Source of the DNA: Candidatus Omnitrophota bacterium
GTDB lineage: Bacteria > Omnitrophota > Gorgyraeia > Zapsychrales > Fredricksoniimonadaceae
Direction: 5' to 3'
Length of the DNA: 64,000 nt
Assembly (NCBI GenBank): GCA_021731625.1
Contig: JAKFXC010000058.1
Span: forward strand, 815 to 64,814
The position numbers and the translations under genes were made by a program. Below the pieces are notes generated by a model. That model saw only the letters and a program-made list of their open reading frames with translations. It did no database searches and had not been told where the DNA came from. Shown piece by piece: positions 2,826 through 61,197 of this stretch (its first letter is position 1; each line of letters opens with the position of its first letter).

Positions 2826-4241
2826 ATGTCTTTGCGCCAGGATTTTCCCCAGCTTGGGACCATTGATGATTTAGCCAAGGCCCGCCGAAGAAAGGTTTAT
2901 TTAGTCGGTGGGTTTTTGCGTGATTTGGCGTTGGGCAAAACCGGCAGTGATTTTGATTTTGCCGTCAGCAGCCATTCCCTCGACCTGGCCCGGAGTTTTT
3001 CCCGTCGAGTGAAAGGGGCCTATGTGCTCTTGGACCAAGAGCGCGGCAGCGCCCGGGTGGTCAAAAAGGAGGGGGGCGTTGATTGGACCTATGACTTTAC
3101 GGATTTTCGGGGCAAAGGGATCAGCGGGGATTTGCGGCGGCGAGATTTTACCGTAAATACGTTGTGTGTGGACTTGTCGACGGGGAAAGACTATTCTCCC
3201 CGGCTGGCTCGTAAAGATTTAAAGGCCAGGATCATCCGGATGGTTTCCCCTAAAGTTTTTTTGGATGACCCGTTACGCTTGTTGCGCGCTTTTAGCTTAG
3301 AGGCTCAGACTGGATTCAAAATTGACGCCAAAACTCTCGCCCGCATCAAAAAGGAGGCCCATTTAATCAGAGCCCCGGCGATGGAGAGGATTAGGGAAGA
3401 GATCTTCAAGATTTTGCATACGCCGCGGGCGTTTAAGACGATCACGGCACTAGACCGCGTCGGATTGCTAACTAGGGTGCTGCCTCAGCTCTGCGTCATG
3501 CACGGCATTAAGCAGGGAGGCTTCCACCATCTGGATGTCTGGAAGCATTCACTGGAGGTCTTAAGCCAATTGGAACAGTTGCTTCCCGAATTTGAGAAAG
3601 ACCCCGCCATTAAGGGTTACTTCGACGAGGAAATCGGTGGCGGACATACCCGCATCTCCCTGATAAAATTGGCTGCTTTGCTCCACGATGTCGGTAAACC
3701 CGAGACCCGCAAAAAAGAAGGGGCCCGCATGACCTTTCATGGGCATGAGCACGCGGGCAAGGCCATTACCCGCCAGGCGGCCAAGCGTTTGAAATTGTCT
3801 GTCAAAGAGCGATATTGGCTGGAGAATGCGGTGCGCATGCATTTGCGGCCAGGCTACCTTTCCAATTTCAAACGCCCGACGGCTAAGGCGATGTTTCGCT
3901 ATATGCGCGATACCAAATCCGAGGCTGCGGCCATTGCGATTTTGGCCATGGGAGACCAGCGCGCCACGCGGGGGCCTTTGACCACAGCAGCCAAGGCTAA
4001 GCACCACGAGCGCATTTGCCGTATGATGATCGAGGAATATTTTACGGTGAAAGCCAAACCGGTCTTGCCGCGCTTGCTCACCGGGCATGATTTGATTAAG
4101 ACTTTAAAGCTTAAGCCCTCGCCGATGTTTGCCGAAATTCTGACGGCCGTGCAGGAGGCCCAGGCTTTAAAAACGATCACCACTAGAGCCCAGGCGCTGG
4201 CGCTTGCGCAAGACCTGGCGACCAAAAACCATGCTTTATAA
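2826..4241 (+). CDS. cca: CCA tRNA nucleotidyltransferase / poly(A) polymerase family protein with an HD domain
   Basis: The GGFLRDLALGKTGSDFDFAV pol-beta nucleotidyltransferase head and the later HHLDVWKHSLEV...LHDVGKP HD motif. Confidence 0.7.
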   Translation: MSLRQDFPQLGTIDDLAKARRRKVYLVGGFLRDLALGKTGSDFDFAVSSHSLDLARSFSRRVKGAYVLLDQERGSARVVKKEGGVDWTYDFTDFRGKGISGDLRRRDFTVNTLCVDLSTGKDYSPRLARKDLKARIIRMVSPKVFLDDPLRLLRAFSLEAQTGFKIDAKTLARIKKEAHLIRAPAMERIREEIFKILHTPRAFKTITALDRVGLLTRVLPQLCVMHGIKQGGFHHLDVWKHSLEVLSQLEQLLPEFEKDPAIKGYFDEEIGGGHTRISLIKLAALLHDVGKPETRKKEGARMTFHGHEHAGKAITRQAAKRLKLSVKERYWLENAVRMHLRPGYLSNFKRPTAKAMFRYMRDTKSEAAAIAILAMGDQRATRGPLTTAAKAKHHERICRMMIEEYFTVKAKPVLPRLLTGHDLIKTLKLKPSPMFAEILTAVQEAQALKTITTRAQALALAQDLATKNHAL

Positions 4242-47204: not shown

Positions 47205-47283
47205 ATTTCCGTTGCGGATTTTGGGCTTTATGTCATACTAATTGCCTGGAATTTCAAGAGGGCGGTTAATTTAAGAAGATATA

Positions 47284-47330
47284 GCGGGGCAGCCAAAAAT
47301 GCTTTTTATTTTTGGCAGTCCCGCGTTTTC
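47284..47330 (+). terminator. long imperfect hairpin plus T-run (terminator after the ftsB-like gene)
   Basis: GCGGGGCAGCCAAAAAT, loop gcttttt, ATTTTTGGCAGTCCCGC, then GTTTTC. Confidence 0.5.
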
Positions 47331-47360
47331 TACAAAGGTTTATAGAACAACAAGAGATAA

Positions 47361-47664
47361 CGCGGGGTGGAGCAGCCCGGTAGCTCGCTAGGCTCAATAT
47401 GGGCGACCGATTGAGAAATCAATCGGCAGATGACCTGTCAAATTCGGGGGAGCCCGCAAAGGTAATCCCGAGCCAAGTCCGCCGAAGTTCCGATTTATCG
47501 GAACGAAGGTGGAAAGGTGTAGAGACTAGATGGCAGGTACCCGACCTGAAAAGGTGGGTAAAGGTATAGTCCAGACCACAAATCTCGTCGGAAAATGAGA
47601 GCGGCGAAAGCCGTAGCTGGTACGCATAACCTAGAGGTCGCAGGTTCAAATCCTGTCCCCGCAA
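47361..47664 (+). tRNA. initiator tRNA-fMet(CAU) interrupted by a group I intron (exons 47361..47394 and 47625..47664)
   Basis: The spliced sequence CGCGGGGTGGAGCAGCCCGGTAGCTCGCTAGGCT|CATAACCTAGAGGTCGCAGGTTCAAATCCTGTCCCCGCAACC is near-identical to E. coli tRNA-fMet, including the C1xA72 mismatch. Confidence 0.85.
47395..47624 (+). ncRNA. group I self-splicing intron (230 nt) inserted 5' of the anticodon between U33 and C34
   Basis: The 5' exon ends in U and the intron ends in G. The conserved core segments CCCGAGCCAAGUCCGCCGAAG and GGUGUAGAGACUAGAUGGCAGGUACCC...GGGUAAAGGUAUAGUCCAG resemble the cyanobacterial tRNA and Tetrahymena group I cores (GCCAAGUCC; AGACUA). Confidence 0.8.
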
Positions 47665-47876
47665 CCCGTGCAGATTAGGACGTTGTCCGAAAGGATAGCG
47701 TCCTTTTCTGTTTACTGGGTATTTAGTGTTTTAAATTTGACTTTATAAAATAAATATGCAAAATAATTAAAGAAGCATTTCTCTCGTTCCACTCCCGCCG
47801 CTTCTACTCCGTGTCTTTCTTTGTAAATCCTTTTGATGCGACATAACCTTGATAGTATCGTGATTGATTTTTTGGA

Positions 47877-48338
47877 ATGGATACAAAACTCAAAGCTGAT
47901 ATAGCTGAATCAGCAGTAACTACTGAACTATTAAGCAGAGGGTTTAATGTTCTTAAGCCCATTGGTGATCGACTATGTTACGATCTAGCTATTGACATAA
48001 AAGGAAAATTAACGCGTATTCAAGTTAAACATGCTTGGTTCAATTATCGAGATAAAGCATATTTGGTAGATGTTAGAAGAACAAATACTAATAGACGACG
48101 GATGCTAAGAAAAAGATATTGCAATGAAGATTTTGAATTTGCAATTATTTATTTAGACGCCAAGGTTTATTATGTCATGCCCGCATGTATTTTTAATTCT
48201 TTTGGCAGCAACATTTCTTTTGTGGAAGATTCAAAAAGACAAAGACTTCCAAAATCTGTCAATTATCGCGAAAGATGGGATTTATTGAGTGAGTCAGTTT
48301 TTAATGTTACGGAAGGACCATGCCGCACACATGGATAA
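47877..48338 (+). CDS. small AT-rich ORF with a PD-(D/E)xK nuclease-like motif
   Basis: E...D(x)n...CYDLAIDIKGKLTRIQVKH (D..DxK..Q.K pattern). GC content is visibly much lower than the surrounding genes. Immediately downstream of the tRNA. Confidence 0.35.
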   Translation: MDTKLKADIAESAVTTELLSRGFNVLKPIGDRLCYDLAIDIKGKLTRIQVKHAWFNYRDKAYLVDVRRTNTNRRRMLRKRYCNEDFEFAIIYLDAKVYYVMPACIFNSFGSNISFVEDSKRQRLPKSVNYRERWDLLSESVFNVTEGPCRTHG

Positions 48339-48508
48339 CAGTTTGTACCGGAGACGTGGGTGACACAATCTCCGGTGCGATGAACGAGGCCGCCCAGACC
48401 CAGCCAAATGGCGGGGTCTTCTAAGAGCCGCACATAGCCCCACATAGCCTTGAATAGCATCTAAATATAGTGCATACTCTATACTGTATCCGTAAACTCA
48501 TCACACGT

Positions 48509-51500
48509 ATGCGCACTGACTTTAAAAGCCTCCTTTTTTCCAGAACCCTATGCCTTGGATTATGCCTTTTAATAGCCATAGGCCAAGGGCCGGTCTATGC
48601 CCAGACTTTGTTTATCAACAGTCTGCCTCCCCCGGGGGACATGCTATCTTTGTCAGCAGACTTTACGCCTGTGGTACTTAGAGGTGTGGTGGTTCATCCT
48701 GACAAACCGTTGAATTTTGATTTCGTTATCGACGCGGGTAATCATACGACTGATCCAAAGATTCTCAGGACCGAAGGCGAGCGCATGGTTAAGTATTTTT
48801 TGGCGGCGTTAACCGTACCCTCCAAGGATTTATGGGTCAACTTATCACCTTATGAGCATGAGCGCATTATTTCTAAGGAGCTTGGTGACACTGAGCTTGG
48901 TCGAGACATGTTGGCGCAGGATTATGTGCTTAAGCAGCTGACCGCCTCGCTTATTTATCCTGAGAGAGGTTTGGGTAAGAAGTTTTGGGACAAGGTATAT
49001 GATCAGGCAAGAACAAGGTATGGCGTCACCAATATTCCCATGCAAACATTTAACAAAGTTTGGATTACTCCAGCCTCCGCTGAGATCTATGAAAAAGATA
49101 ATACGGTCTATGTGACTAAGGCAAGGCTCAAGGTCAAGTTGGATGAGGATTTCCGGTCGTTGACAAGAAATAAAATAAACACAACAGGAGCTCACGCTTT
49201 AACTCCCCAAGTCTTAAGACAAGTTATCATTCCCGCTCTTGAAAAAGAAGTCAACGAGGGAAAGAATTTCGCCTCGTTGCGTCAGATTTACCATGCCACT
49301 ATTTTGGCCAAATGGTATCGTCAAGCCATCACAAAATCCCTGCTTTCTCGTTTTTATATCGACAAGAATAAGATCAAGGGCATTGACCTCGATGATAAGA
49401 CGATCAAGGAGCAAATTTACGAACGTTATATAAGGGCTTATAAAAAAGGGGTCTTTAATTATATTAAAGAAACTCCCATGCCCAATGGCCAACTGGCACC
49501 AAGAAAATATTTTTCAGGCGGAATCTCTCAACTTGATCAAATTCCATTTGATCATGCACAAACAGTGGAGATTCCTACTCAACCTCATTTTGTTATGAAT
49601 GTGGAATTAGATGCACCTGCCATTGCAAACCCAGCCATGACCCCCGATCTTAATTTTGCTATGACTTCTTTTTGGGATGATTTCGCATTGGATCGACCCG
49701 TCGACTCGTTGGTCCAGGGAATTCTTTATATGGAGAGTCGGCTGATACCCGGTCCTCATTATGAAATGGAGTGGGGAATGCGGCAAAGGATCATCGACGC
49801 ACTTGGTATTTTGAATCAAAGGCTGAAAAAGAAAGGAGGGAAGAGAACAGTAGATTTTTTGAAGGCCCTTCTTCGGGAAAATAGTCCCGTTTATGAGAAG
49901 AACCCCGATGTCCAAGAAACGATCGGCCGTGTATTGGTGTTTCTCGACCAAGAGGCGGGAAAGCAAGTAACTGAGGACCATCGTTTATTGAAGGAGGCTC
50001 TGCAGATCATTTACCCTAACCTGCCCAAGAAGAGTATAGATCAGATCTACGGCAATCTAGAACGCGAGGACAGTCAGGTTTCAGAGAACGATATGAAGAT
50101 ATATACTCTCTTTAAAAATCGGAAATCGGATTTGCTTTTACGTAATCAATTTGTTTTGGACAGAATTTTTTCTTTACCTGGTGAGGAATTGGAAAACTTA
50201 ATCAAAAATTTTAAGGAGATTGACAGTCTGTTTGCGCACAGCGGTCTTGTGGATCCTTTGGGAGAGTATGTGCAGCTGGCGTATTTAATGGAAATGATTT
50301 TGCCTGATGTTGCGGTCAACTATCTGAAAGGTTTATATTTCAAAAATGGTGGAATAAAGGTTGTGATGAGATTTTTGGACAGCAAGAGGTCCTTTTTGCT
50401 CAATGATGGAGCATGGATGGAACTTAGAAAGCTGCTGAGAAAGATGAAAGAACTTAACGGTAAAAGCCGAACCTATAAGCTGGATACGAATTTCTATAAA
50501 ATGTTGAATTTAGCTTCTGCATTTTTGGACCTGGGAGGACCGGAAAAATTAAGCGCTGCTTTAGAATCGGTTGTCCCTTCAAAGAATCAAATAGACGTAG
50601 CTAAACAAATGGAAAGTATACTGCTCAAACAAATGGCTGAATTTTTGAACATCACATCAATTTCTATAAAACCGAATATCCAGGAAAAACTCTACATGCC
50701 ATATTTGTCGAGGATCCGGGTTGCCCTAAAGTATATAAAGGATGAAAAACCTTGGAAGCTCGACAGATTTAAGGCTTTGATTAGAGCCACGTTAGAAGAT
50801 CGCTTTTGGAATTTTATTGAAGACGAGAGTCAATCTGATGAAGAAGGAGCAGAGATTGCCCAGCATAACAAAGGCGTCCGGAAGGCTTTAGCGAAGGTGG
50901 GTATCAATGTGGACCGTTGGCTGGGCAAACAATTGGAGTCCAGGTTACCGGAGGAGAGGTTTACCTTTGGCCAGAATTCATTTATCATCCGGCCTATATT
51001 CCGCAGACCTGGTTATGATGTCTTTCTAGGGGATTTTACAAATTGTTCGGTAGGTATGAGTTCCAATCAGTATCCGGACGGGATGATGGAAAGGCTCATC
51101 GATGAGGGACTCAATACAATTGAAGTTATTGATGAAAGCACACAGAAACCTACGGCTGCAGCTTGGTTATTTGTTGCCGAGGATGGGAGTGTTGTCATTC
51201 AAAATTTGGAAGCCAATACCAATTATGAAAGTGATCCATCGTTAAAGAATTATCTAGGTGAGCAAATGGTGGCTTATACGATGAAATTCGCGAATCATGT
51301 AGGTACGAACCTCCTCCTAATAGGAGATGCGGTACACGGAAAATACTGGGAACAACGTGGGAAAGCCGGGTTTGTCATTGACCATTACGGCAAGAACAAA
51401 GTTAAGTTTGGCTTGGAGAAAATAGGCGGCTATCTTGGAGAGAAATATTACCTTACATCAGCCGGAGAGGAATATGCTTATCTCGTTACTGATTTTGCCA

Positions 51501-54500
51501 TGTACGTTGAGAAAGTTTCAGCCATGCAGGCCGTATCAAAAGCTGCCAGTCCAGCTATGGTAGTTTTCGAAGGCGCTCAGAAAATCACCCCTGAGGAAAT
51601 GGAGGGAGACAGCAAGATTTTAAGCACTTATCTGAAAAAAGAGAACATGGGAGATGTTGACGAAGCTATGAAGTCCAAGGAAACTCAATTGACCCAAATT
51701 ATCAGGGAAAACATTACTGGCAATGTCTCTATCACTTTAAACGAATTGGCTGTAGAGGCGGGGTTTGACGACCCTGCTAATAAAACTTTTCAACGGGTTC
51801 TTCTCAAATACCTTCAAACGATACCTAAAACTATTCTTCATGAACATGTTTCCGGCGTTATTTTCCCGGAAGATTTAATTAGATACTTTTTGGATGATGA
51901 ACCCTCCAAAGAAGAATTTACTGCTGATGAACGTCAAAACAGATTGGAAGCCCGCCGTGAAGCCAGACGGCGATTTGTTTTAACCGTTGATTCCCGCAGA
52001 AGCGGGATCGATTTGCAAGCCAACCCAGTGAATCCCAATAATAGTCAAGAAGAAGCAGACCGTGCTTTTCGAGAGATTTTGGAACTGCCCCAGAAAGTTC
52101 CACTAACTTTAAACGACATTAATTTGCCTAATACCGTTAAAAAACTGAAAATTTTTGTAACCTATAAAGATAAAAATGTCGATTGGAATAACTTTGAACG
52201 CGCTTTTGCTGTTATTAAAACTGTAACAGATGCGCACCCAAGATTTCGCTATGAACTCTTAAGAGAAGGTGTATTGCGGCATTTTAATCAAGACAATGTC
52301 CGTAATCTTGAATTAACCGATTTTCATAGCCAGTCGCTGGGAGAGCTCTTGAAAGAATTGGTTTCCATTGAACAGCAGCTTCATGGGGCAATGACATTGT
52401 CGGTTTTGAAAGCTTTTCGGAAAGATTATTTGGAACGGGTTTTAAAGCAGGCTGAAAAAAATGAGGACTATAGACAAGAAGTGTTTAAGCGGTATCAGGG
52501 GCAGTCATTGGATGAGGTTAAAGAAAGCATTTTCAGAGAAACTTTAAAAATGGACCAACAGTATTTTAAATTGGATCGGGAGAAAATAAAAAAAGAATTC
52601 GAGGAGGCCATCGAGCAGATCAAAGAGAATCTTAACATAGAAAAGAAGGAACAAGTCACTTTAGAAGATTTACGCAATCGGCTTATATTTGCCCTTGAGG
52701 CCCGTAAGTTAGCTTTGAAAGAAGCCAAAGATTTCGAGACAGATCTTAATCGACTAGAACTTAACGAGCCGCTCTTGCGTAAGCGTATCGGCGGTATCAG
52801 CAGCATCGGAAATGAAACAGGCTATATCAATTGGGTCGGCTCTCCTATTTTGCGTAACGCCCGCCGGATTGGGTTAAAGATTTCTTCCCATATGGGAGAA
52901 GTTTGGGAACCGAGCCAGTATGTGACGTCTTTAAAACGCATTAAATATGAAATTGAAAATGGGGTTAACCGACTCGCTCACGTGACGGTATTAGGATTGG
53001 ACTATGGACCATCAACGCGCATCCCAATATCTGAACCGGAGCGAATCGACGCTCAAAAACTTCAGGAAGAAATATTTAGTCTCCTGCTGCGGAATAATAT
53101 TCATATTGAACTTCAGCCAACCAGTCAAATCATTACCTCTGCCGATTTTAACGATTACAAAGGTCACATCATTAGGAAATTTTTTAAAATGAACAAAAAT
53201 GGCAGTGGTCTAAGTTTTTCTATTAATCCTGATGACAGCAGCATCTTCGATACCTCTTCCTCGCAAGAAGAACTTGCTGTTTGGCTCGCCAACCCGGAAC
53301 TTCCCTATTCAGTTCTGAGTCAAACGTTTCTTATGGCTAATGATGCCAGATTTTATGAGTCACCCCGCCGGGTCAAAAGACGATTGAGGAATGAACGGCG
53401 AAAGGTTTGGGCAGCGATCAAAGGTTTTAATAAACCCATTCAACGTCCCGCTATCGTAGTCATTGGGAGCGCGCGTATCCCTGATGGCGGTCCACAAGAA
53501 GAGACAGGACGAGAAATTGGGAAATTGGCTTGGGAAAATAGTACAGCGATCAAAACCGGAGGCGGTCCGGCAGCTATGAAGTGGCCTTTGGAAGAGTTCA
53601 TTAAGTCTAGAGAAGACCGTTTCAGAGCCCTGCGCAAACGAGGCTTATCTATACCTGACAACGTTCCAGTTCAGTCCATTAATGTGTTGGTGAATACGTT
53701 CGAACCCGAAAATAAATCTCTGGAACAAAATTATATGTTTCGCCATTTTGTATTCCGGAAATTAGGGCTACATTTAAACGCGCTAGGGCTTATCGGCATT
53801 CATGGCGGTCTAGGAACATGGGATGAAATTTTTGAAGGCTGGCGGCGTCGACGGGAAATATCGTTGATCGGAGAAAGTTACTATAAGCCTATTCTTGATG
53901 TGTTAAAAGATCGCTGGGAATTTGCGGGATTACTAGATCGTGTGGACTACTGGCCATTTGTGACTAACAGCAGCGAGGAAGCCTTTTATCACATCCTTGA
54001 CCATGCCGATAAACACAGAGTCATAATTCCAACTCAGAAACAAACAATGGCAGTCATCAAAGAAATGGAAAACGGCATCGACAAATTATCCGCGCTACCA
54101 CGGGCGGTCGTTATTCTGGGAAAGCCGGAAGATAATGCGTATGGACGGACGGTTCTTAATCAACTCAATGGTATTATTTCTCCGATTTTTAAGATGAAGG
54201 TTCCTGTCCGTATTGCTAGCCGTGGAATTATTTTGGGATCGGTTCTTAAGCAGGCACAGCAGCTTCGAGCGGAGTCGGTTTTGCAAGCTGTTCTGTATAA
54301 GAAAGAGGAAGTCGAGGGGCTTGTCCCAAGCGAACAGTATGTCAAACAGCATTTACCAGGGCAAACCCTATTTCTCGAAGATGATTCTAATCACCAGCTG
54401 CTGCTGACGTATGATGCGCGTGGTTATATTGTTTTGCCTGGGGTAGTTGGAATATTCAATAAACTTTTTGATATTGTGGTGGCCATGCAAACCGGCAGTA

Positions 54501-54967
54501 TACGCCGTAAACCAATTATTTTGGTGGGGCGTGAATTTTGGGAACCGATTTTAAAAATTTTGAAACAAACAATGGAGAATTATGACCCACCTTTAGTGTC
54601 TAAAGGCGATTTTGAATTGATGACAATTATTGATACACCTCAAGAGGCCACTGAAGAATTGGCCTTAAACGGCATTGGTGAAAGGACCGATGCCGCGATG
54701 ATGGGGACAGGAAACCGGGCCATGAACGACACCATCCATACAGGCCGAAAGCAAGACTTTGGCGGTATTGATCTTCAGGCGGACAAAATAAATCTGCACC
54801 GCCAAAATGATGGGCAAGAAATCAACGTTCATGCTGACCCAGCCATGATCGAGCAATTTCAAAACGCCCCCGGCTTTGTGCCGGTCATCATTAATATTCG
54901 CCCCCTGACAGATATTCGTATGTTCCTTGGCATCAATAAAGATCAGACCCACCCTAAAACAGGGTAA
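48509..54967 (+). CDS. giant exported multi-domain protein, paralog B (2152 aa from M14): shared N-domain, adenosine/AMP-deaminase-like domain, two LOG-like domains, shared C-terminal module
   Basis: Signal peptide MRTDFKSLLFSRTLCLGLCLLIAIGQGPVYA. The N-domain is homologous to 4998..8183. ADA-like motifs with correct spacings: LHEHVSG (HxH), SSHMGE (HxGE), RLAHV, ITSADF. LOG-like 1: VVIGSARI...TGGGPAAM...LIGIHGGLGTWDEI. LOG-like 2: LPGVVGIFNKLFD...KPIILVG.EFWEPI. C-terminus GGIDLQADKINL...NAPGFVPVIINIRPLTDIRMFLG. Confidence 0.6.
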   Translation: MRTDFKSLLFSRTLCLGLCLLIAIGQGPVYAQTLFINSLPPPGDMLSLSADFTPVVLRGVVVHPDKPLNFDFVIDAGNHTTDPKILRTEGERMVKYFLAALTVPSKDLWVNLSPYEHERIISKELGDTELGRDMLAQDYVLKQLTASLIYPERGLGKKFWDKVYDQARTRYGVTNIPMQTFNKVWITPASAEIYEKDNTVYVTKARLKVKLDEDFRSLTRNKINTTGAHALTPQVLRQVIIPALEKEVNEGKNFASLRQIYHATILAKWYRQAITKSLLSRFYIDKNKIKGIDLDDKTIKEQIYERYIRAYKKGVFNYIKETPMPNGQLAPRKYFSGGISQLDQIPFDHAQTVEIPTQPHFVMNVELDAPAIANPAMTPDLNFAMTSFWDDFALDRPVDSLVQGILYMESRLIPGPHYEMEWGMRQRIIDALGILNQRLKKKGGKRTVDFLKALLRENSPVYEKNPDVQETIGRVLVFLDQEAGKQVTEDHRLLKEALQIIYPNLPKKSIDQIYGNLEREDSQVSENDMKIYTLFKNRKSDLLLRNQFVLDRIFSLPGEELENLIKNFKEIDSLFAHSGLVDPLGEYVQLAYLMEMILPDVAVNYLKGLYFKNGGIKVVMRFLDSKRSFLLNDGAWMELRKLLRKMKELNGKSRTYKLDTNFYKMLNLASAFLDLGGPEKLSAALESVVPSKNQIDVAKQMESILLKQMAEFLNITSISIKPNIQEKLYMPYLSRIRVALKYIKDEKPWKLDRFKALIRATLEDRFWNFIEDESQSDEEGAEIAQHNKGVRKALAKVGINVDRWLGKQLESRLPEERFTFGQNSFIIRPIFRRPGYDVFLGDFTNCSVGMSSNQYPDGMMERLIDEGLNTIEVIDESTQKPTAAAWLFVAEDGSVVIQNLEANTNYESDPSLKNYLGEQMVAYTMKFANHVGTNLLLIGDAVHGKYWEQRGKAGFVIDHYGKNKVKFGLEKIGGYLGEKYYLTSAGEEYAYLVTDFAMYVEKVSAMQAVSKAASPAMVVFEGAQKITPEEMEGDSKILSTYLKKENMGDVDEAMKSKETQLTQIIRENITGNVSITLNELAVEAGFDDPANKTFQRVLLKYLQTIPKTILHEHVSGVIFPEDLIRYFLDDEPSKEEFTADERQNRLEARREARRRFVLTVDSRRSGIDLQANPVNPNNSQEEADRAFREILELPQKVPLTLNDINLPNTVKKLKIFVTYKDKNVDWNNFERAFAVIKTVTDAHPRFRYELLREGVLRHFNQDNVRNLELTDFHSQSLGELLKELVSIEQQLHGAMTLSVLKAFRKDYLERVLKQAEKNEDYRQEVFKRYQGQSLDEVKESIFRETLKMDQQYFKLDREKIKKEFEEAIEQIKENLNIEKKEQVTLEDLRNRLIFALEARKLALKEAKDFETDLNRLELNEPLLRKRIGGISSIGNETGYINWVGSPILRNARRIGLKISSHMGEVWEPSQYVTSLKRIKYEIENGVNRLAHVTVLGLDYGPSTRIPISEPERIDAQKLQEEIFSLLLRNNIHIELQPTSQIITSADFNDYKGHIIRKFFKMNKNGSGLSFSINPDDSSIFDTSSSQEELAVWLANPELPYSVLSQTFLMANDARFYESPRRVKRRLRNERRKVWAAIKGFNKPIQRPAIVVIGSARIPDGGPQEETGREIGKLAWENSTAIKTGGGPAAMKWPLEEFIKSREDRFRALRKRGLSIPDNVPVQSINVLVNTFEPENKSLEQNYMFRHFVFRKLGLHLNALGLIGIHGGLGTWDEIFEGWRRRREISLIGESYYKPILDVLKDRWEFAGLLDRVDYWPFVTNSSEEAFYHILDHADKHRVIIPTQKQTMAVIKEMENGIDKLSALPRAVVILGKPEDNAYGRTVLNQLNGIISPIFKMKVPVRIASRGIILGSVLKQAQQLRAESVLQAVLYKKEEVEGLVPSEQYVKQHLPGQTLFLEDDSNHQLLLTYDARGYIVLPGVVGIFNKLFDIVVAMQTGSIRRKPIILVGREFWEPILKILKQTMENYDPPLVSKGDFELMTIIDTPQEATEELALNGIGERTDAAMMGTGNRAMNDTIHTGRKQDFGGIDLQADKINLHRQNDGQEINVHADPAMIEQFQNAPGFVPVIINIRPLTDIRMFLGINKDQTHPKTG
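54758..54967 (+). repeat. dispersed C-terminal-module repeat, copy 2
   Basis: About 80% nt identity to 7968..8183 over the core. Confidence 0.6.
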
Positions 54968-55214
54968 AGTTAGCGGCAAGTCCTGGCCCTTCTTACCGTA
55001 AGTCCTTTAAATTCAATAGGCATCAAAGTCGCCCGGTAGGTCGCAAGGATCATATTCCCTGGCTGACATTGCTTTGAGGCATGTTCTTACTCGTAGTAAG
55101 AAAGTAACGAGGTAAGGAATGGCAGAAGGTACAGAAATTAGCTTCGGCTAGCAGCCCTCGCAGGGTCGGATTTTGCTATAACAAAATCCGGGAACACAGA
55201 TTCTTAAATTAAAT

Positions 55215-55248
55215 ACGGGCAGTCCTTAAGTGGGCTGCCCGTTTTTTT
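55215..55248 (+). terminator. rho-independent terminator downstream of the 2152-aa gene
   Basis: ACGGGCAG, loop tccttaagtggg, CTGCCCG, then TTTTTTT. Confidence 0.6.
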
Positions 55249-55353
55249 GTGTAAAAGAATTGCTTAAAAGGTTGAATCCAGTTTCAAACGATACTAGGAT
55301 GATTATAGTTCAAAGTCTTTAATAGAATATTTTAATTTCTTTTGGAGAAAACA

Positions 55354-58300
55354 ATGTTCAAATTTCTTCTTATTGTATTATTCTGGGTGGTCAATTTTTC
55401 GAATGTTAATACTTATGCCCAGAGTACCACGTCACCGCTTGCCATTGAGGAGCAAGAAGTTAAAAAGATCAATAATGAATTGATCAATGACCGAAAAGTA
55501 TATAAGAGGAACCCTAGAAATAAGGACCATAAAAAACGCATGGAGCGTAAGTTGCACAAACGAAGAGAAAAGATTCTAAGACTCATGCAAGAGAATCCCG
55601 ATTTACTTAAGAGAATTGCTATGAGTGATCAAGAATCAGCGGATTTGCCCCCGGATTTTCAAAATTTGGTTGAGCGTCGTGTCAAAGAAGAAGGCGCTAT
55701 GGAAGTGATTGTTGAGGATCGCAATGACGGGGCAGTTGTGCATCAGTTTTTAAGGACCCGCAAAGGCCGGAAATTTAAAATGTTTTTGCCTAAAAATATG
55801 AAGTCAAAATTTCTTTCAGGGACCAAGGTGCGTTTTGAAGCCTATCAATTGGATGATCATATGGCCTATAGTGGAAGTCCTGATCAATCGGTTCAAGTTC
55901 TATCAACTCCAGATTCAAAAGTGTTGGGAGAGCAACGGTTATTGGTTGTTATGGCTAATTTTATAGATGGAGGTCCTCAAGGTTGGCAACCGGATGTGGT
56001 CAACAATATCGTTTTTAACGAAGTTAATAATTTTTTTAAAGAAGTATCTTATAATAAAATATGGTTAACTGGTGAGACTAAAGGTTGGATAACATTGCCG
56101 ATGACCTATGAACAAGGTAAATGTCGATTGACAAGTGATGGAAGGGTAGATGAAAATTATAATCGCACAATCCGGAACAAAATTATTAATGAAATTATTC
56201 GAATCATAGATCCCCAGGTGAATTTTCATGATTTTTCACGTATTTTAATAATTTATCCGTATGAAGCTTATGTTTGTGGTTATGCGGGGATTTCCTCATT
56301 AGGTAAAGCTGATCTTGAAACAGCAGATGGTTGGGTCAAGGCTTCTTTGGCTATTGTGTTGACGCAAGCGCCATCGACATCTCTGATTGCACATGAGTTA
56401 GGGCATAGTTTTGGGGTAATGCATGCAAATAACTTAGAATGTGATAATGTCAGTATTGGCACAAGCCCGCCTTGTTATAACATTGAATATGGAGATACCG
56501 GGGATATCATGGGTAGATCAGGTATTTTTCACTTTAATGCAGCGCATAAGGATACATTAGGTTGGTTTTCTCCTTCAAATTTAGCATTGTTTGATACGGT
56601 TGGGACAAATCATTACACGATTAAACCTATAGAAATACCCACCAATGAGCTTCAAGCTTTAAAAATATTACGAGGGCAAGGTTCTCACTTTTATATAGAA
56701 AATCGAAAACCTATTGGTTTTGATATGACCAATAGATTAAATGGTGCTGCTATACATATGGCCTCAGATGTTGTTTTAGGCTCGCATTTATTAGATATGA
56801 CCCCAAAATCTCAAGGGAGTCTGGAAGATTTAAATGATGCTGTATTAAATGTTGGAAAAGTTTTTTATGATCCGGTGGGTCAAATTACGATGGAAACCTT
56901 AAGTGACACATTCCAAGATCTTCAAGTTCAAGTTAAGGTAGATCCTGACACTAATCCGCCGCAAGTTGCTATTGACACGGAAAATACAAAAAGAATGGAC
57001 TATGACCTAAATGCCGTGCAAGTACAAGTTAATTTTTTTGAAAACAGGGGTTTAAAACAAATCGAATTATTTATTGATGATCAATTGTATCAAACCTCAA
57101 CGAATTTTAGTCCTACTAGTGATCAAGTTTCAGAAAGGTTTTATTGGCAAACAACTCAATATAACGAAGGCCCGCATCGATTGGTTGCAAAAGCAACAGA
57201 TTTAGTAGGCAATCAAGCCGTGTCAGCACCAATGATTTTTCAACTTAGTAAAGCCAATACGAATCATGATCCAATAGTACGGGTGTCGGGAAATACAACG
57301 GCGTCCGTTGGCCAGTGGATTTCATTGTTTGCCATCCCAGAAGATGCTGATGTTAACGATTTTCCTTTTGTATCGTATGAGATATCCAAAGAAGGAATTC
57401 AACCATCCACGAATTTAGGTGATGAAATATTTTATTCATTATTAGGGGATGTTGATGCCAGCCAGTTATTGGACAATCGGGATGAAGAGTTTCTAGCCAA
57501 ACATTTAAGTAATCCAGTACAATTTCCTTTGACGGAAAAGCAAAAAATATTAGCAGATGTTACCCAAGATGGGTTCATTAATCAAGCTGATTTGGATTTA
57601 ATCCATAAACTTAGTACATATGAAATTATACAAGATGTTCATGTTTTTTTAGCTAAATTAAATCGGACAGGATACTACAAGGTGAATTTCATTGTATCAG
57701 ATAGAAAAAGCTTTGTTTCTAAATTGGTGGATCTTGAAATTACCAATTCATCGGGTGTTTCTACCAATACGCCTCCGGAATTTCAACCAATCGGTGCCCA
57801 ACACGTTCAAGTAGGATCGACATTAACATTTCCTTTGTTGGCAACAGATAGAGATAATGATGCCTTGTTTTATGCGTTGGAAACACCGGTGCCCAATGGA
57901 GCTCTTCTAAACGGGAATATTTTTGCTTGGACCCCGCGTCCTGAGCAAGCGCTTGCTCCTACCAATGTTTATTCTTTGGTGTTTAAAGTGACAGATCAAA
58001 AATCTTCACCCGTTTCGCAACAAATAACCATTACTGTCAACCAGATACCAAATATTCCCAAAAAATCAACTAAAACAACGTTGGCCCTGTTGTCCAATAT
58101 AAATGTGACAGCTGGAGACCCGATAGACATTGTTGCGATCGTTGGTGAAGGCCAAAACCCAACAGGCCATGTTGATTTTTATGAATCAAGTGTTGCCATT
58201 CCTTCTTGTGTTGGCTTGAGATTAAGGGCAGAATCTATTGCCTGCCATCTGCATTCGTTAAATACCGGCGATTATTTTATAACAGCCCAATATTTGGGTG

Positions 58301-61197
58301 ATCCGTTGAATGAAAATTCAACAAGTCAGGTGTTAGGAATTAAAGTAGAGAAAAAACAGAGTCAAACAAACTTGACATTATCCCCGCCGAGTGGCAATGA
58401 GTTAGGCCAATTGATCACTTTGGAAGCCACAGTCACAGGATTTTTACCATCAGGAACAGTTAGTTTTACTGATCAAGACAATTTTATCACCAACTGTGCT
58501 GCGTTGATACTCAATGGCCAAGGAAAAGTTCAATGCCAGACCAGTACCCTTGGGGTGGGGAATCACGTGATACGGGCTCGATACAACGGGGATTCAAACA
58601 ATACCGAGAGTATAACCTCCGAGCCAATCAATCTGCAGATCAATGCTAAACCCCAAGTAGCAGCCCCAAGTTTTAGCGTGCCAGAGGGAGTATATAATAG
58701 TGAGCAACTTGTTTATTTAAGTACCACAACAATGGGTGCAGAAATCCGCTATACATTAGACGGCAGCTTGCCGACTTCTAGTTACAGTCTGTATCATGGC
58801 ACAGCAATTAATGTGGCCACACAGGCAACCATTAAAGCTGTAGCATTCAAAGATGGCATGGTTGATAGTCTCGTTGCGGTGGCGAATTATACAATCCAAA
58901 TACCTCCACCACCGATCGTAGACCCGCCAATTGTTTTGCCTCCAGTTAATAGATCAATGCCCATGGCGTTTTGGTTGCTGGATGGGAATGGTTATGATGC
59001 GGTGGGTGACAATCATCTAACTTTGGCTGGAACAACGTTTGTCACAGACACAGAGCGTCAACAAGTTTATAGCCTAAACGGCAGCACGGACAAAGCAATA
59101 TCGTATCTGACGGGCCCGTCAGAGAAACTCACCATTGCCACATGGTTTAAACAGACAGCTAGTAGTCCACAGCAGGTGATTTTACAAGGAGGGAACCAAT
59201 ACAACCATGATTTTTATTACCGCTTACAAGTAGTACTTAATCAAGCAAGAAAAGTGCATTATTTGAGTGGAGGGGTAGGCAGCGGTAATGGTCAAGGTTT
59301 TGCCTGGGATGAAAACATTATTTATAAAGAAGGGTGTCCAGTATCTTTGAATGTTTGGCATTTGGGTGTACTGACCCATGATAATGCAACGCATGAGACT
59401 ATTTTGTATCTTGATGGTAATCAATGCTTCAAGGAAAAAAGCAAAAAAGATTTAGCGCCAGCACCAGGATTGACGGTTGGCGCTTTTACAAATCCTGGAT
59501 TTAACTTTTCTGGATTGTTGGATGATGTGCGCATTTATAATAGAGTGCTAAGCCCTGAAGAAATCATCATGTTATATCATTCAACGACACGCCCAGTAAA
59601 CAAAATGAGTACAACGACAACGGTTGTTAGCCATTTCAATCCAGCTACTATTGGTAGCAGCATCACATTTCTGGCGACTGTTGGTAATAATACGAATAAT
59701 GTTCCAACCGGAACTGTGACCTTCTTGGACAACGGGCAGATTATAAATGCTTGTGCTCTTGTGCCTCAAGCTAATGGCATAGCCAGTTGTACAAGTACAA
59801 TCAGTGGATTAGAAGAAATGAACCATATCATTACTGCAAGTTACGGTGGAGATGGCAACAATAGCTCTTCCGTAAGCGCGCCTATGACACAAACAGTAAC
59901 CCCTAACGTTCAAGAGAATCTAACCGCCATTTTATACGGTAGCTCAGAGTGGACGCTTGCCAAGGACCGCGTGGGCCAACAACAAGCAACAGCCATACCA
60001 GATAATGTACGCGACATTCATATTCGATTAAATAATGTGCCAAAGGCGATACAAAAAATAACCATCAAATCCCTAGGTGATGTGGGGGTGTGGGAGTGGC
60101 CGTTCAATGGCCAAAATTGGTATATCGTACGCGAACCCAACAATGGCCCTGGACAAGTAGATCTGTATTTTGATTATTGGAAGGACGTAAACACGTATAC
60201 GATTGATTTGATTTATGATGATGGAAGCTCGAAATCCGTGACCACGGTTCCAGGAATACCAGATCAGGATATAATTCCACCTAACCTGCAAGTAGCAACA
60301 CCAACTTTTAATGTCTCCGAGGGGACATATGATAGTCCACAAAGTGTTTATTTAAATACAACAACAGCGGGGGCAGAAATCCGCTATACATTAGACGGTA
60401 GTTTGCCGACTTCTAGTTCTAATCTTTATAGTGGTGCTGTAATTCAAGTGACGACAAACACAACGATCAAAGCTTTTGCGTTTAAAAATGGTATGACCGA
60501 TAGCCCTATAGCAAGTGCAACGTATACAATCAACATGCCACCAATCAATACACCGCCAGCTGGACTTAAGCTTTGGCTTAAATTTGATGAGGGCACCGGT
60601 ACAACTGTTTCGGATACATCAGGATTGTTGGGTCAACCCGTACGTCATTTTTCCTTTAGTGGAAGCCCAAGATGGGAAGCGGGAAGAATAGGAGCTTATT
60701 CAGGATTCTTTAATGGAACAAATTATCTTAGTTCTAGTGGAGTGAACCTTGGGACCTTTGCTAATTCGTTTGATAATACACAAACAGCTTGGGTTTATCC
60801 CATAAAGCCAGGAAATTCATGCGCCATTTCTTATAACTGTGACGCCATTTTTGGAGATCAACCAGGAACAGGGTATTGGGCCCTTAGTTATGATAACAAG
60901 AATTTTGTGGTTTATAATTGGGATGGCGATGAAGATCAATGCCGGGGCAAGACAGCGTATAACCTCAACGCATGGTATCATGTGGCCAGGGTGCATACGG
61001 GTGGGAAAATTTATTTATATGTTAACGGCAAGGAAGAATGCTCTGTGGCAACAGGAAGTACGCAAAAGATAACGGGAGAGTTTCGTATAGGAAATGGCTA
61101 TTATGGCAGGGGCTTTAAGGGTCGGATCGACGACGCTCGGGTGTACGACCGCGGTTTAAATGCCGATGAGATTAGTAAAATTTTTAATAGTCACTAG
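55354..61197 (+). CDS. giant secreted metzincin-type zinc metallopeptidase with Ig-like, CHB_HEX_C-like and two LamG-like (concanavalin-A-type) domains
   Basis: Signal peptide MFKFLLIVLFWVVNFSNVNTYAQ. HELGHSFGVMH matches HEXXHXXGXXH. Two GAEIRYTLDGSLPTSS...IKA(V/F)AFK(D/N)GM units. LamG signatures LDDVRIYNRVLSPEEI and IDDARVYDRGLNADEI. AT-rich. The track ORF begins at a TTG at 55342. Confidence 0.65.
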   Translation: MFKFLLIVLFWVVNFSNVNTYAQSTTSPLAIEEQEVKKINNELINDRKVYKRNPRNKDHKKRMERKLHKRREKILRLMQENPDLLKRIAMSDQESADLPPDFQNLVERRVKEEGAMEVIVEDRNDGAVVHQFLRTRKGRKFKMFLPKNMKSKFLSGTKVRFEAYQLDDHMAYSGSPDQSVQVLSTPDSKVLGEQRLLVVMANFIDGGPQGWQPDVVNNIVFNEVNNFFKEVSYNKIWLTGETKGWITLPMTYEQGKCRLTSDGRVDENYNRTIRNKIINEIIRIIDPQVNFHDFSRILIIYPYEAYVCGYAGISSLGKADLETADGWVKASLAIVLTQAPSTSLIAHELGHSFGVMHANNLECDNVSIGTSPPCYNIEYGDTGDIMGRSGIFHFNAAHKDTLGWFSPSNLALFDTVGTNHYTIKPIEIPTNELQALKILRGQGSHFYIENRKPIGFDMTNRLNGAAIHMASDVVLGSHLLDMTPKSQGSLEDLNDAVLNVGKVFYDPVGQITMETLSDTFQDLQVQVKVDPDTNPPQVAIDTENTKRMDYDLNAVQVQVNFFENRGLKQIELFIDDQLYQTSTNFSPTSDQVSERFYWQTTQYNEGPHRLVAKATDLVGNQAVSAPMIFQLSKANTNHDPIVRVSGNTTASVGQWISLFAIPEDADVNDFPFVSYEISKEGIQPSTNLGDEIFYSLLGDVDASQLLDNRDEEFLAKHLSNPVQFPLTEKQKILADVTQDGFINQADLDLIHKLSTYEIIQDVHVFLAKLNRTGYYKVNFIVSDRKSFVSKLVDLEITNSSGVSTNTPPEFQPIGAQHVQVGSTLTFPLLATDRDNDALFYALETPVPNGALLNGNIFAWTPRPEQALAPTNVYSLVFKVTDQKSSPVSQQITITVNQIPNIPKKSTKTTLALLSNINVTAGDPIDIVAIVGEGQNPTGHVDFYESSVAIPSCVGLRLRAESIACHLHSLNTGDYFITAQYLGDPLNENSTSQVLGIKVEKKQSQTNLTLSPPSGNELGQLITLEATVTGFLPSGTVSFTDQDNFITNCAALILNGQGKVQCQTSTLGVGNHVIRARYNGDSNNTESITSEPINLQINAKPQVAAPSFSVPEGVYNSEQLVYLSTTTMGAEIRYTLDGSLPTSSYSLYHGTAINVATQATIKAVAFKDGMVDSLVAVANYTIQIPPPPIVDPPIVLPPVNRSMPMAFWLLDGNGYDAVGDNHLTLAGTTFVTDTERQQVYSLNGSTDKAISYLTGPSEKLTIATWFKQTASSPQQVILQGGNQYNHDFYYRLQVVLNQARKVHYLSGGVGSGNGQGFAWDENIIYKEGCPVSLNVWHLGVLTHDNATHETILYLDGNQCFKEKSKKDLAPAPGLTVGAFTNPGFNFSGLLDDVRIYNRVLSPEEIIMLYHSTTRPVNKMSTTTTVVSHFNPATIGSSITFLATVGNNTNNVPTGTVTFLDNGQIINACALVPQANGIASCTSTISGLEEMNHIITASYGGDGNNSSSVSAPMTQTVTPNVQENLTAILYGSSEWTLAKDRVGQQQATAIPDNVRDIHIRLNNVPKAIQKITIKSLGDVGVWEWPFNGQNWYIVREPNNGPGQVDLYFDYWKDVNTYTIDLIYDDGSSKSVTTVPGIPDQDIIPPNLQVATPTFNVSEGTYDSPQSVYLNTTTAGAEIRYTLDGSLPTSSSNLYSGAVIQVTTNTTIKAFAFKNGMTDSPIASATYTINMPPINTPPAGLKLWLKFDEGTGTTVSDTSGLLGQPVRHFSFSGSPRWEAGRIGAYSGFFNGTNYLSSSGVNLGTFANSFDNTQTAWVYPIKPGNSCAISYNCDAIFGDQPGTGYWALSYDNKNFVVYNWDGDEDQCRGKTAYNLNAWYHVARVHTGGKIYLYVNGKEECSVATGSTQKITGEFRIGNGYYGRGFKGRIDDARVYDRGLNADEISKIFNSH

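Follow-up and report, generated by a model that had tools for sequence, protein, structure and literature searches.

We analysed a stretch of 64,000 nucleotides, here called the window, from a Candidatus Omnitrophota bacterium (assembly GCA_021731625.1, contig JAKFXC010000058.1, positions 815 to 64,814 of the forward strand), in which the gene for the initiator tRNA, tRNA-fMet, is split by a 230-nt group I intron and is followed by a separate gene for a homolog of the homing endonuclease I-Ssp6803I. An earlier, sequence-only reading of this DNA had recognised the split tRNA and missed the free-standing endonuclease homolog, which is the more interesting part of the locus, since the intron alone is as such a routine finding. 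What appears to be new here, going by the literature searched, is the recurrent and patchily distributed pairing of a tRNA-fMet intron that lacks an open reading frame (ORF) with a free-standing endonuclease of the I-Ssp6803I family. The tRNA, intron and endonuclease features described below all lie on the + strand of the window, and positions are those of the window unless another locus is named.

The first exon of the tRNA gene (47361..47394) was delimited with ARAGORN, both with introns allowed and on the joined exons, and comprises C1 to U33 (34 nt including 17a), while the second exon (47625..47666), read directly from the sequence, runs from C34 to A73 at 47664 and is followed by CC. With introns allowed, ARAGORN reports a tRNA-Met(cat) with a 230-nt intron at position 35, and it draws a normal cloverleaf for the joined exons (GCTCGCTAGGCTCATAACCTAGAGGTC), the anticodon region of which reads GCTCGCTAGGCT|CATAACCTAGAGGTC in its uninterrupted form. 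The spliced tRNA carries the marks of an initiator, namely the C1xA72 mismatch and CAU anticodon that had already been pointed out and an A11:U24 pair in the D-stem, and the likeness to E. coli tRNA-fMet that had been claimed for it amounts to identity at 65 of 77 positions. By default, the only tRNAs that ARAGORN finds in the window are a tRNA-Phe and a tRNA-Thr at other positions, and the split gene (47361-47667) also escapes the Rfam tRNA model. Standard tRNA finders thus overlook it, and routine annotation would report a genome without an initiator tRNA. A consensus scan places an intrinsic terminator (a 12-bp stem and then a T-run) 3' of the gene at 47677..47714.

The intervening sequence (47395..47624) has no ORF, ends in a terminal G at 47624 and is identified as a group I intron by an Rfam match, a hand-drawn fold and covariation. 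The Rfam model Intron_gpI (RF00028) matches at 47385-47590 over its full length (1-253), scoring 77.6 bits (E 5.6e-18) where the gathering score is 50, and this is the single group I match in the window, permissive Rfam settings included. The group I core elements that the sequence-only reading had seen in the insert are thus genuine, and the Rfam match, ARAGORN with introns allowed and covariation agree that an initiator tRNA-fMet gene is split by a group I intron. The fold can be drawn by hand from P2 to P9a, the P3-P7-P8 pairings included, with P2 (47407-14/47419-26), P3 (47433-39/47532-38), P4 (47443-48/47467-72), P5 (47452-54/47461-63), P6 (47473-74/47516-17), P6a (47478-83/47508-13), P6b (47487-93/47498-504), P7 (47524-28/47567-71), P8 (47539-47/47552-59), P9.0 (47575-78/47618-21), P9 (47583-88/47595-600) and P9a (47601-05/47610-14). 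This IC3-type fold has GAAA tetraloops on P2, P8 and P9a and a P3/P7 pseudoknot. Two strings had been quoted as the strands of P7, of which AGACUAGAUGG does contain the 5' strand (GACUA, 47524-47528), with J7/3 and the beginning of P3' after it, but GCCAAGUCC is the 3' end of P4, P6 and the first part of P6a; all other strings quoted had been placed correctly.

The splice junction follows from the pairings around it and from the relatives. In P1 (47392..47404), exon nucleotides G31-C32-U33 and intron nucleotides c1-a2 can be paired with the guide u6-g7-G8-G9-C10 (47400-47404), which puts a U33·G8 wobble at the 5' splice site and leaves a loop of 3 nt, and the UGGGC guide is nearly invariant in the alignment of ribozyme cores. 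The guide also takes part in an alternative P10, in which CAUA of exon 2 (47625-47628) pairs with uaug of the intron (47398-47401), and this explains the CA duplication at the junction, a real 2-nt ambiguity that had been noted before. A search of reference genomes with the window's endonuclease gave 80 related loci, in 73 of which a split tRNA-fMet could be mapped, and all 74 genes (the window and these 73) have GGCU at the end of the 5' exon and, before CAUAACC, a G as the last nucleotide of the intron. Most introns open with CA, with the same ambiguity, and those of L007, L009, L038 and L047 open with CG or UG, which leaves U33|C34, the junction originally proposed, as the sole consistent splice site.

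Covariation was counted on a MAFFT alignment of 73 ribozyme cores, in which 86% of cells form standard pairs, as against 30-45% when the 3' partners are slid. Changes on both sides are seen in 49 of the 67 pairs, with P7 essentially invariant, and none of 500 shuffles matched the observed covariation values on any measure. The pairing count for P2 is low because MAFFT set the window's clade one column out of register, the helix being obvious in each sequence, and the window's one deviation from the columns that are at least 90% conserved is an artefact of this register, so that it departs from no genuinely conserved core column. The intron belongs to subgroup IC3, as judged by its alignment throughout with three tRNA-fMet introns of that class (PMC13011429), and it would be expected to excise itself from the pre-tRNA.

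Two traits of the tRNA could be taken as signs of a dead gene. In the anticodon stem G30:C40 and G31:C39 are present and 29:41 is A:U, giving two of the three consecutive G:C pairs (29-31:39-41) that are canonical for initiator tRNAs, and the 3' end is encoded as ACC-C, not ACCA, so that the terminal A of CCA is not encoded here, in contrast to L011, L017 and L021, which do encode CCA. Since 64 kb of the genome are visible, other copies could exist, and the split gene might then be a pseudogene, or its intron defective in splicing, with the functional initiator tRNA encoded elsewhere. We consider this highly improbable. A29:U41 is found in most Omnitrophota initiator tRNAs, intron-bearing or uninterrupted alike, together with compensatory variation at 27-28:42-43 (CUAGG, CCAGG, CAAGG, UCAGG), and because the uninterrupted orthologs share it, it looks like a trait of the lineage rather than decay. 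The syntenic gene is an initiator tRNA gene in relatives with or without the intron, the core positions and helices of the window's intron are all conserved, and the cloverleaf and initiator marks are intact.

The endonuclease gene (47877..48338) encodes a PD-(D/E)XK protein of 153 aa and starts 210 nt past the tRNA and 252 nt past the 3' splice site. The protein matches Pfam PF11645 (E 3e-37, 128.2 bits against a cut-off of 26.1), the PDB entry 2OST over residues 2-139 with about 50% identity (E 1e-39) and the PADLOC model 'HEase' (E 6e-44), and it is unmatched in NCBIfam. Residues D36, Q49, V50 and K51, with the D...QxK signature, are invariant in 22 homologs and identical in 2OST. A total of 494 homologs were detected, many of them in metagenome-assembled genomes (MAGs) of Omnitrophota, and several are named 'group I intron-associated PD-(D/E)XK endonuclease' by NCBI. 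The entry 2OST is I-Ssp6803I, a tetrameric homing endonuclease with a 23-bp target that is encoded in the tRNA-fMet intron of Synechocystis (PMC3384342). The family is marked by genes that lie within the group I intron whose insertion site their product targets, and the window's gene lies outside the intron.

Upstream of the gene a consensus scan finds a promoter-like site (47737..47765), with TTGACT, a spacer of 16-17 nt and CAAAAT/AAAATA preceded by TG, and alignments with L017 and L021 define a leader (47766..47876). The promoter-like element (TTGACTTTATAAAATAAATATGCAAAAT) and the leader are conserved 5' of free-standing genes (window 47737-47815, L017 2010-2075, L021 3920-3985), and an inverted repeat in the leader, AGAAGC (47771-76) and GCUUCU (47800-05), is invariant in the three sequences. 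A structured regulatory RNA in the leader was considered and set aside, as a hairpin that is invariant in just three sequences offers no covariation evidence. A stretch of ~57 nt of the leader is specific to the window, being absent in L017 and L021, and contains CATAACCTTGA (47842-47852), which lies 25 nt 5' of the endonuclease ATG. In many relatives exon 2 opens with these same 11 nt (CATAACCTTGAGG), and 8 nt are shared with exon 2 of the window itself. This element could be half a target site that acts as an autoregulation operator, a relic or a chance match; autoregulation via an operator occurs in I-TevI.

The free-standing endonuclease genes are under purifying selection, as dN/dS among them is 0.04-0.14, with synonymous sites near saturation, and is 0.12-0.14 for the window's gene against those of L017 and L021. 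Neither exon fragments nor ribozyme relics were found beside the free-standing copies, and at the window's gene an nhmmer profile and a permissive Rfam scan gave no ribozyme relic. A second, degraded copy of an intron-containing tRNA was rejected as the source of the window's gene, since neither exon fragments nor a ribozyme relic are present at it.

Among relatives the endonuclease occurs in two arrangements. Reference genomes hold 108 stretches that encode a relative, and in 60 of the 73 mapped loci the ORF lies within the P1 loop of the intron. There it starts 2-3 nt past the 5' splice site (GGCU|CA) and reads across the guide (…GAU GGG C…), its end lying in most cases in the P2 tetraloop, with ~195 nt of ribozyme and then exon 2 after it. 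Some gene calls among the homologs place GVEQPGSSQGS before the MDTKLK start, which is the 5' exon of the tRNA read in frame, so that the ORF of those genomes opens directly at the 5' splice site. In the other arrangement, seen in the window and in 13 loci (L001, L006, L011, L017, L021, L025, L045, L046, L059, L060, L061, L069 and L080, the last from a Nostoc isolate), an ORF-less intron of 202-324 nt is combined with an endonuclease gene that lies downstream, past the complete tRNA and without exception on its strand, at a distance of 53-2888 nt in the 13 loci.

A bootstrapped neighbour-joining tree of the endonucleases shows the free-standing arrangement to be polyphyletic. The window groups with L001, L011, L021 and L017 (74% support) and L059 with L069 (100%), while free-standing L061 pairs with intronic L032 (95%), L025 falls inside the intronic L002-L004 group (91%) and the Nostoc gene, L080, pairs with I-Ssp6803I (62%); on the ribozyme tree the window joins L006, L017 and L021 at 82%. 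Intronic copies always sit at precisely one place, from which we infer that the intronic state is ancestral and that the free-standing state was derived several times, the direction being unproven. The most recent switch of arrangement is that of L025, whose endonuclease gene is 90% identical to that of intronic L004, with 75% identity in the ribozyme and 70% in the host flank. The stretch of high similarity begins 4 nt ahead of the ATG, ends with the last codon before the guide and corresponds exactly to the P1-loop insert. The endonuclease thus acts like a separate cassette, whose movement need not be tied to that of the ribozyme.

Several other loci deserve mention. In L025 the region between the tRNA and the endonuclease gene (3003-3949) encodes a 68-aa HTH-like ORF and a 233-aa ORF with an HNH-nuclease-like motif (DHIIPFSKGG...N...H), which suggests a small cluster of mobile or defence genes. 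In L008 (4001-5479) a fragment of a tRNA 3' end comes directly after an intact endonuclease gene, and ~950 nt on there are the 3' third of the ribozyme and exon 2 only; neither exon 1 nor the enolase/FtsB synteny was found in L008, and the locus may be rearranged or mis-assembled. Endonuclease-containing tRNA-fMet introns are also present in L015, L028, L035, L042, L053, L058, L066, L067, L070, L074, L076, L077 and L079, which, with their MAG labels at face value, come from Saccharibacteria/Patescibacteria, Melainabacteria, Bacteroidota, Kapaibacterium, Margulisiibacteriota, 'Deltaproteobacteria' and 'Gammaproteobacteria'.

The host context allows the presence of the two elements to be compared at one site. 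The gene order FtsH(-), enolase, FtsB, tRNA-fMet is common to nearly all Omnitrophota loci recovered, and this synteny shows a single orthologous locus. The enolase of the window has 79-83% identity to its counterparts in L006, L011, L017 and L021, and gene order and enolase both agree with the Omnitrophota origin of the window. A metagenome scan for uninterrupted tRNA-fMet genes with the anticodon stem and T-arm of this clade returned 120 stretches, among them 15 syntenic (enolase/FtsB) loci, and in none of these 15 do the available flanks contain an endonuclease. L193 offers a clean empty site, with enolase, FtsB, an uninterrupted tRNA, a terminator and a homolog of the window's large downstream protein. 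In a clade of the enolase tree with 100% support, loci with both elements (the window, L006, L011, L017 and L021) interleave with loci that have neither (L095, L138, L149 and L193), and the same interleaving is seen in the sister clade. Every resolvable endonuclease locus has the intron, and no endonuclease was found beside an uninterrupted initiator tRNA gene among the loci examined, the uninterrupted CAU tRNAs near some endonuclease loci being of the elongator type (C11).

This pattern bears on the view that the intron is a fixed, vertically inherited and immobile passenger and the endonuclease a displaced relic with no role in moving or stabilising it. Within the window's clade the trees of intron, endonuclease and host are broadly congruent, as such a view would have it, and decay does occur, the copy in L006 being frameshifted (22 aa) and those in L043, L056 and L078 truncated. 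A recent survey, moreover, concluded that the mobility of tRNA introns is limited, most of them being without endonucleases (PMC13011429). Nevertheless, we regard an inert relic as unlikely, because the free-standing genes are kept under purifying selection over distances at which synonymous sites are near saturation, the promoter and leader of the endonuclease are conserved, the free-standing state arose repeatedly, and presence and absence of the two elements are strictly linked among close relatives. The endonuclease of L025 is also closer to an intronic copy than its flanks are, which argues for recent independent movement.

We propose instead that the locus is probably a two-part selfish element, a collaborative-homing and toxin-antidote pair seated on the initiator tRNA gene. 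The ORF-less IC3 intron at U33|C34, folded into its P3-P7 and P4-P6 core, would excise itself with the help of the U33·G wobble in P1 and the terminal G, and would thereby restore a functional initiator tRNA. The I-Ssp6803I homolog, transcribed separately, would by homology cut uninterrupted tRNA-fMet genes at the pseudo-palindromic anticodon stem-loop; I-Ssp6803I itself is said to leave 3-nt 3' overhangs that flank the anticodon. Because the intron splits the target of roughly 23 bp, the host's own gene would be immune. An intronless allele would be cut and then repaired from the donor, so that the intron and the adjacent endonuclease gene are copied together, and a cell that lost the intron would again have a cleavable site in an essential gene, so that the loss would be penalised.

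Several points weigh against this proposal. Enzyme specificity, splicing and co-conversion are all steps that we infer from sequence comparison. The specificity of the endonuclease for uninterrupted tRNA-fMet is predicted from its identity of about 50% to I-Ssp6803I, and the anticodon stem here, with A29-U41, is not the same in sequence as the Synechocystis target. Support for the promoter and leader consists of a consensus match and of conservation in three sequences. The linkage of presence and absence is a population-level proxy for co-inheritance, and the intron-bearing loci were collected through the endonuclease, so that the sample covers introns with an endonuclease; genomes with the intron and no endonuclease fall outside it, and the published Omnitrophota intron of GCF_004102945.1 may be such a case. 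The sequence 3' of the endonuclease gene is not conserved between relatives, which would limit co-conversion to very close strains, and the patchy distribution could arise from repeated joint loss as well as from homing.

The same enzymology could also serve defence. The endonuclease might have been domesticated as a restriction-like nuclease against incoming phage, plasmid or competitor DNA that carries an uninterrupted tRNA-fMet gene, with the intron providing self-immunity, and the 'HEase' match in PADLOC fits this idea, as do the position of the gene at the border of a variable, GC-poor region and the HTH protein and HNH nuclease next to the endonuclease of L025. Folds like that of I-Ssp6803I are also cited in papers on the SPARDA and Hna defence systems. 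However, known defence partner genes are absent, the two giant ORFs that neighbour the window's gene having no PADLOC match, and the family is overwhelmingly borne by introns (60 of the 73 mapped loci), which is the signature of a homing element. Since cleavage of uninterrupted tRNA-fMet genes is common to both roles, defence would be compatible with homing, and as a replacement for it we find domestication quite unlikely.

Further features surround the locus. Between FtsB and the tRNA lies a long AT-rich hairpin (gcggggcagccaaaaatgc...atttttggcagtcccgc, 47272-47336). The simplest reading of it is the terminator of FtsB, and its weak matches to miRNA models are due to chance. Beyond the endonuclease gene, 48470-61197 has a GC content of about 0.40-0.42, as against about 0.52 upstream, and holds two giant ORFs of 2165 and 1951 aa, the former with weak LOG (Lysine_decarbox) and adenosine-deaminase-like domain matches. 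Immediately after tRNA-fMet, L193 (54% over 161 aa) and L026 (31% over 380 aa) encode homologs of a giant-ORF protein. In some relatives, both intron-bearing and intronless, the tRNA-fMet gene is followed by an insert of ~130-170 nt that ends in a second copy of the last 18-20 nt of the tRNA and a terminator. Repeats of this kind occur in L011, L017, L193 and L008, the stretches concerned being 3739-3909 of L011, 1783-1954 of L017, 2866-3028 of the reverse complement of L193 and 4420-4436 of L008, and in L008 and L017 sequence like the tRNA 3' end also follows the stop codon of the endonuclease. These repeats look like footprints of site-specific insertion into the 3' end of the tRNA gene. The insert is not present in the window, and an integrated island bounded by a repeat of the tRNA 3' end was rejected there, as no second copy was found in the window with 3 mismatches allowed.

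If the proposed pairing is real, it has consequences beyond this locus. Intron mobility may have been underestimated, as the latest survey sought endonuclease genes only inside long introns, and a partner gene outside the intron would change the conclusion of limited mobility (PMC13011429). In that survey of complete genomes PF11645 was found in two cyanobacterial introns only, and with 108 stretches encoding a relative in the present search, the prevalence of these endonucleases in uncultured lineages is much above that published. The leading hypothesis on how mobile introns arose holds that a free-standing endonuclease and an ORF-less intron first meet at one site by convergence and fuse afterwards (PMC3984707), and in the literature that we searched it rests on two phage systems. 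In the I-Ssp6803I family each of the two states is seen many times over, the breakpoints matching the P1-loop insert exactly, and the assembly and disassembly of mobile group I introns would thus be open to direct comparison across independent transitions. The toxin-antidote logic, if true, would explain how an essential gene of very small genomes comes to keep an intron.

Compared with known systems, the intron alone is an ordinary further member of a documented group. Group I introns in the tRNA-fMet genes of cyanobacteria were reportedly described by Biniszkiewicz et al. in 1994, and the sequence-only reading had considered the present one noteworthy because such introns are classically cyanobacterial. 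That argument is outdated, as a 2026 survey of 4,934 complete bacterial genomes lists, across 18 phyla, 333 group I introns in tRNA genes, describes 33/34 of tRNA-fMet as a well-characterised site and records ORF-less IC3 introns at this site in Desulfobacterota, Nitrospirota and one Omnitrophota genome (PMC13011429, Table S5). These share with the window's intron the host gene, the U33|C34 site and the IC3 architecture; the published introns of Omnitrophota, Nitrospirota and Desulfobacterota are 68-70% identical to it and align helix for helix, and the differences are confined to a lineage-specific periphery (the 3-nt P1 loop and an extended P6a/P6b). Published introns from Nitrospirota and Desulfobacterota (GCA_958295805.1, GCA_951812745.1 and GCF_017377395.1) have P1-loop inserts of 45-60 nt at the position of the intronic endonuclease ORF, which may be scars of ORF loss. 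The intron in the pre-tRNA-Ile(CAU) of Azoarcus is likewise a small (~200 nt) IC3 ribozyme in an anticodon loop, and its sequence has GAAA tetraloops on P2 and P9 and is closely similar to the window's in J3/4, J6/7 and P7. It differs in its host tRNA and in its site (36/37, vs 33/34 in the window), and we know of no endonuclease partner for it.

The closest relative of the endonuclease among characterised enzymes is set in the same intron family and the same host gene. I-Ssp6803I of PCC 6803 has 151 residues, and the window's protein is a nearly full-length homolog of it; unlike the gene for I-Ssp6803I, however, the window's gene lies outside the intron and the tRNA, behind a terminator, a promoter and a leader of its own. 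The C-terminal codons of intronic copies overlap the guide sequence and P2, and the window's gene is without them.

In its layout the locus resembles the collaborative homing described from two phage systems (PMC3984707), one of which is mobE with the nrdB intron in T-even phages (T4; Wilson & Edgell 2009, PMC2790892). There too an ORF-less self-splicing intron in a conserved gene is accompanied by a free-standing endonuclease gene within a few hundred bases, the presumed target of the endonuclease is the insertion site of the intron, the intron confers immunity and the two are inherited jointly. The phage pairs are said to have been reported in 2009 by Zeng, Bonocora & Shub (F-CphI with the psbA intron of cyanophage S-PM2) and by Bonocora & Shub (mobE with the nrdB intron of T-even phages). 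The literature that we searched contains no report of collaborative homing outside phages and no description of an ORF-less tRNA-fMet intron with a free-standing endonuclease of the I-Ssp6803I family. We suggest, tentatively and short of calling it probable, that this may be the first collaborative homing in a bacterial chromosome, with a cassette that has moved repeatedly between the P1 loop and a free-standing position and an intron that acts as the antidote protecting the only initiator tRNA gene. The window's pair differs from those of phages in being known from sequence alone, in residing in a bacterial chromosome and in a tRNA gene rather than a protein gene, in having a PD-(D/E)XK enzyme, and in belonging to an endonuclease family that is seen many times both within the intron and free-standing.

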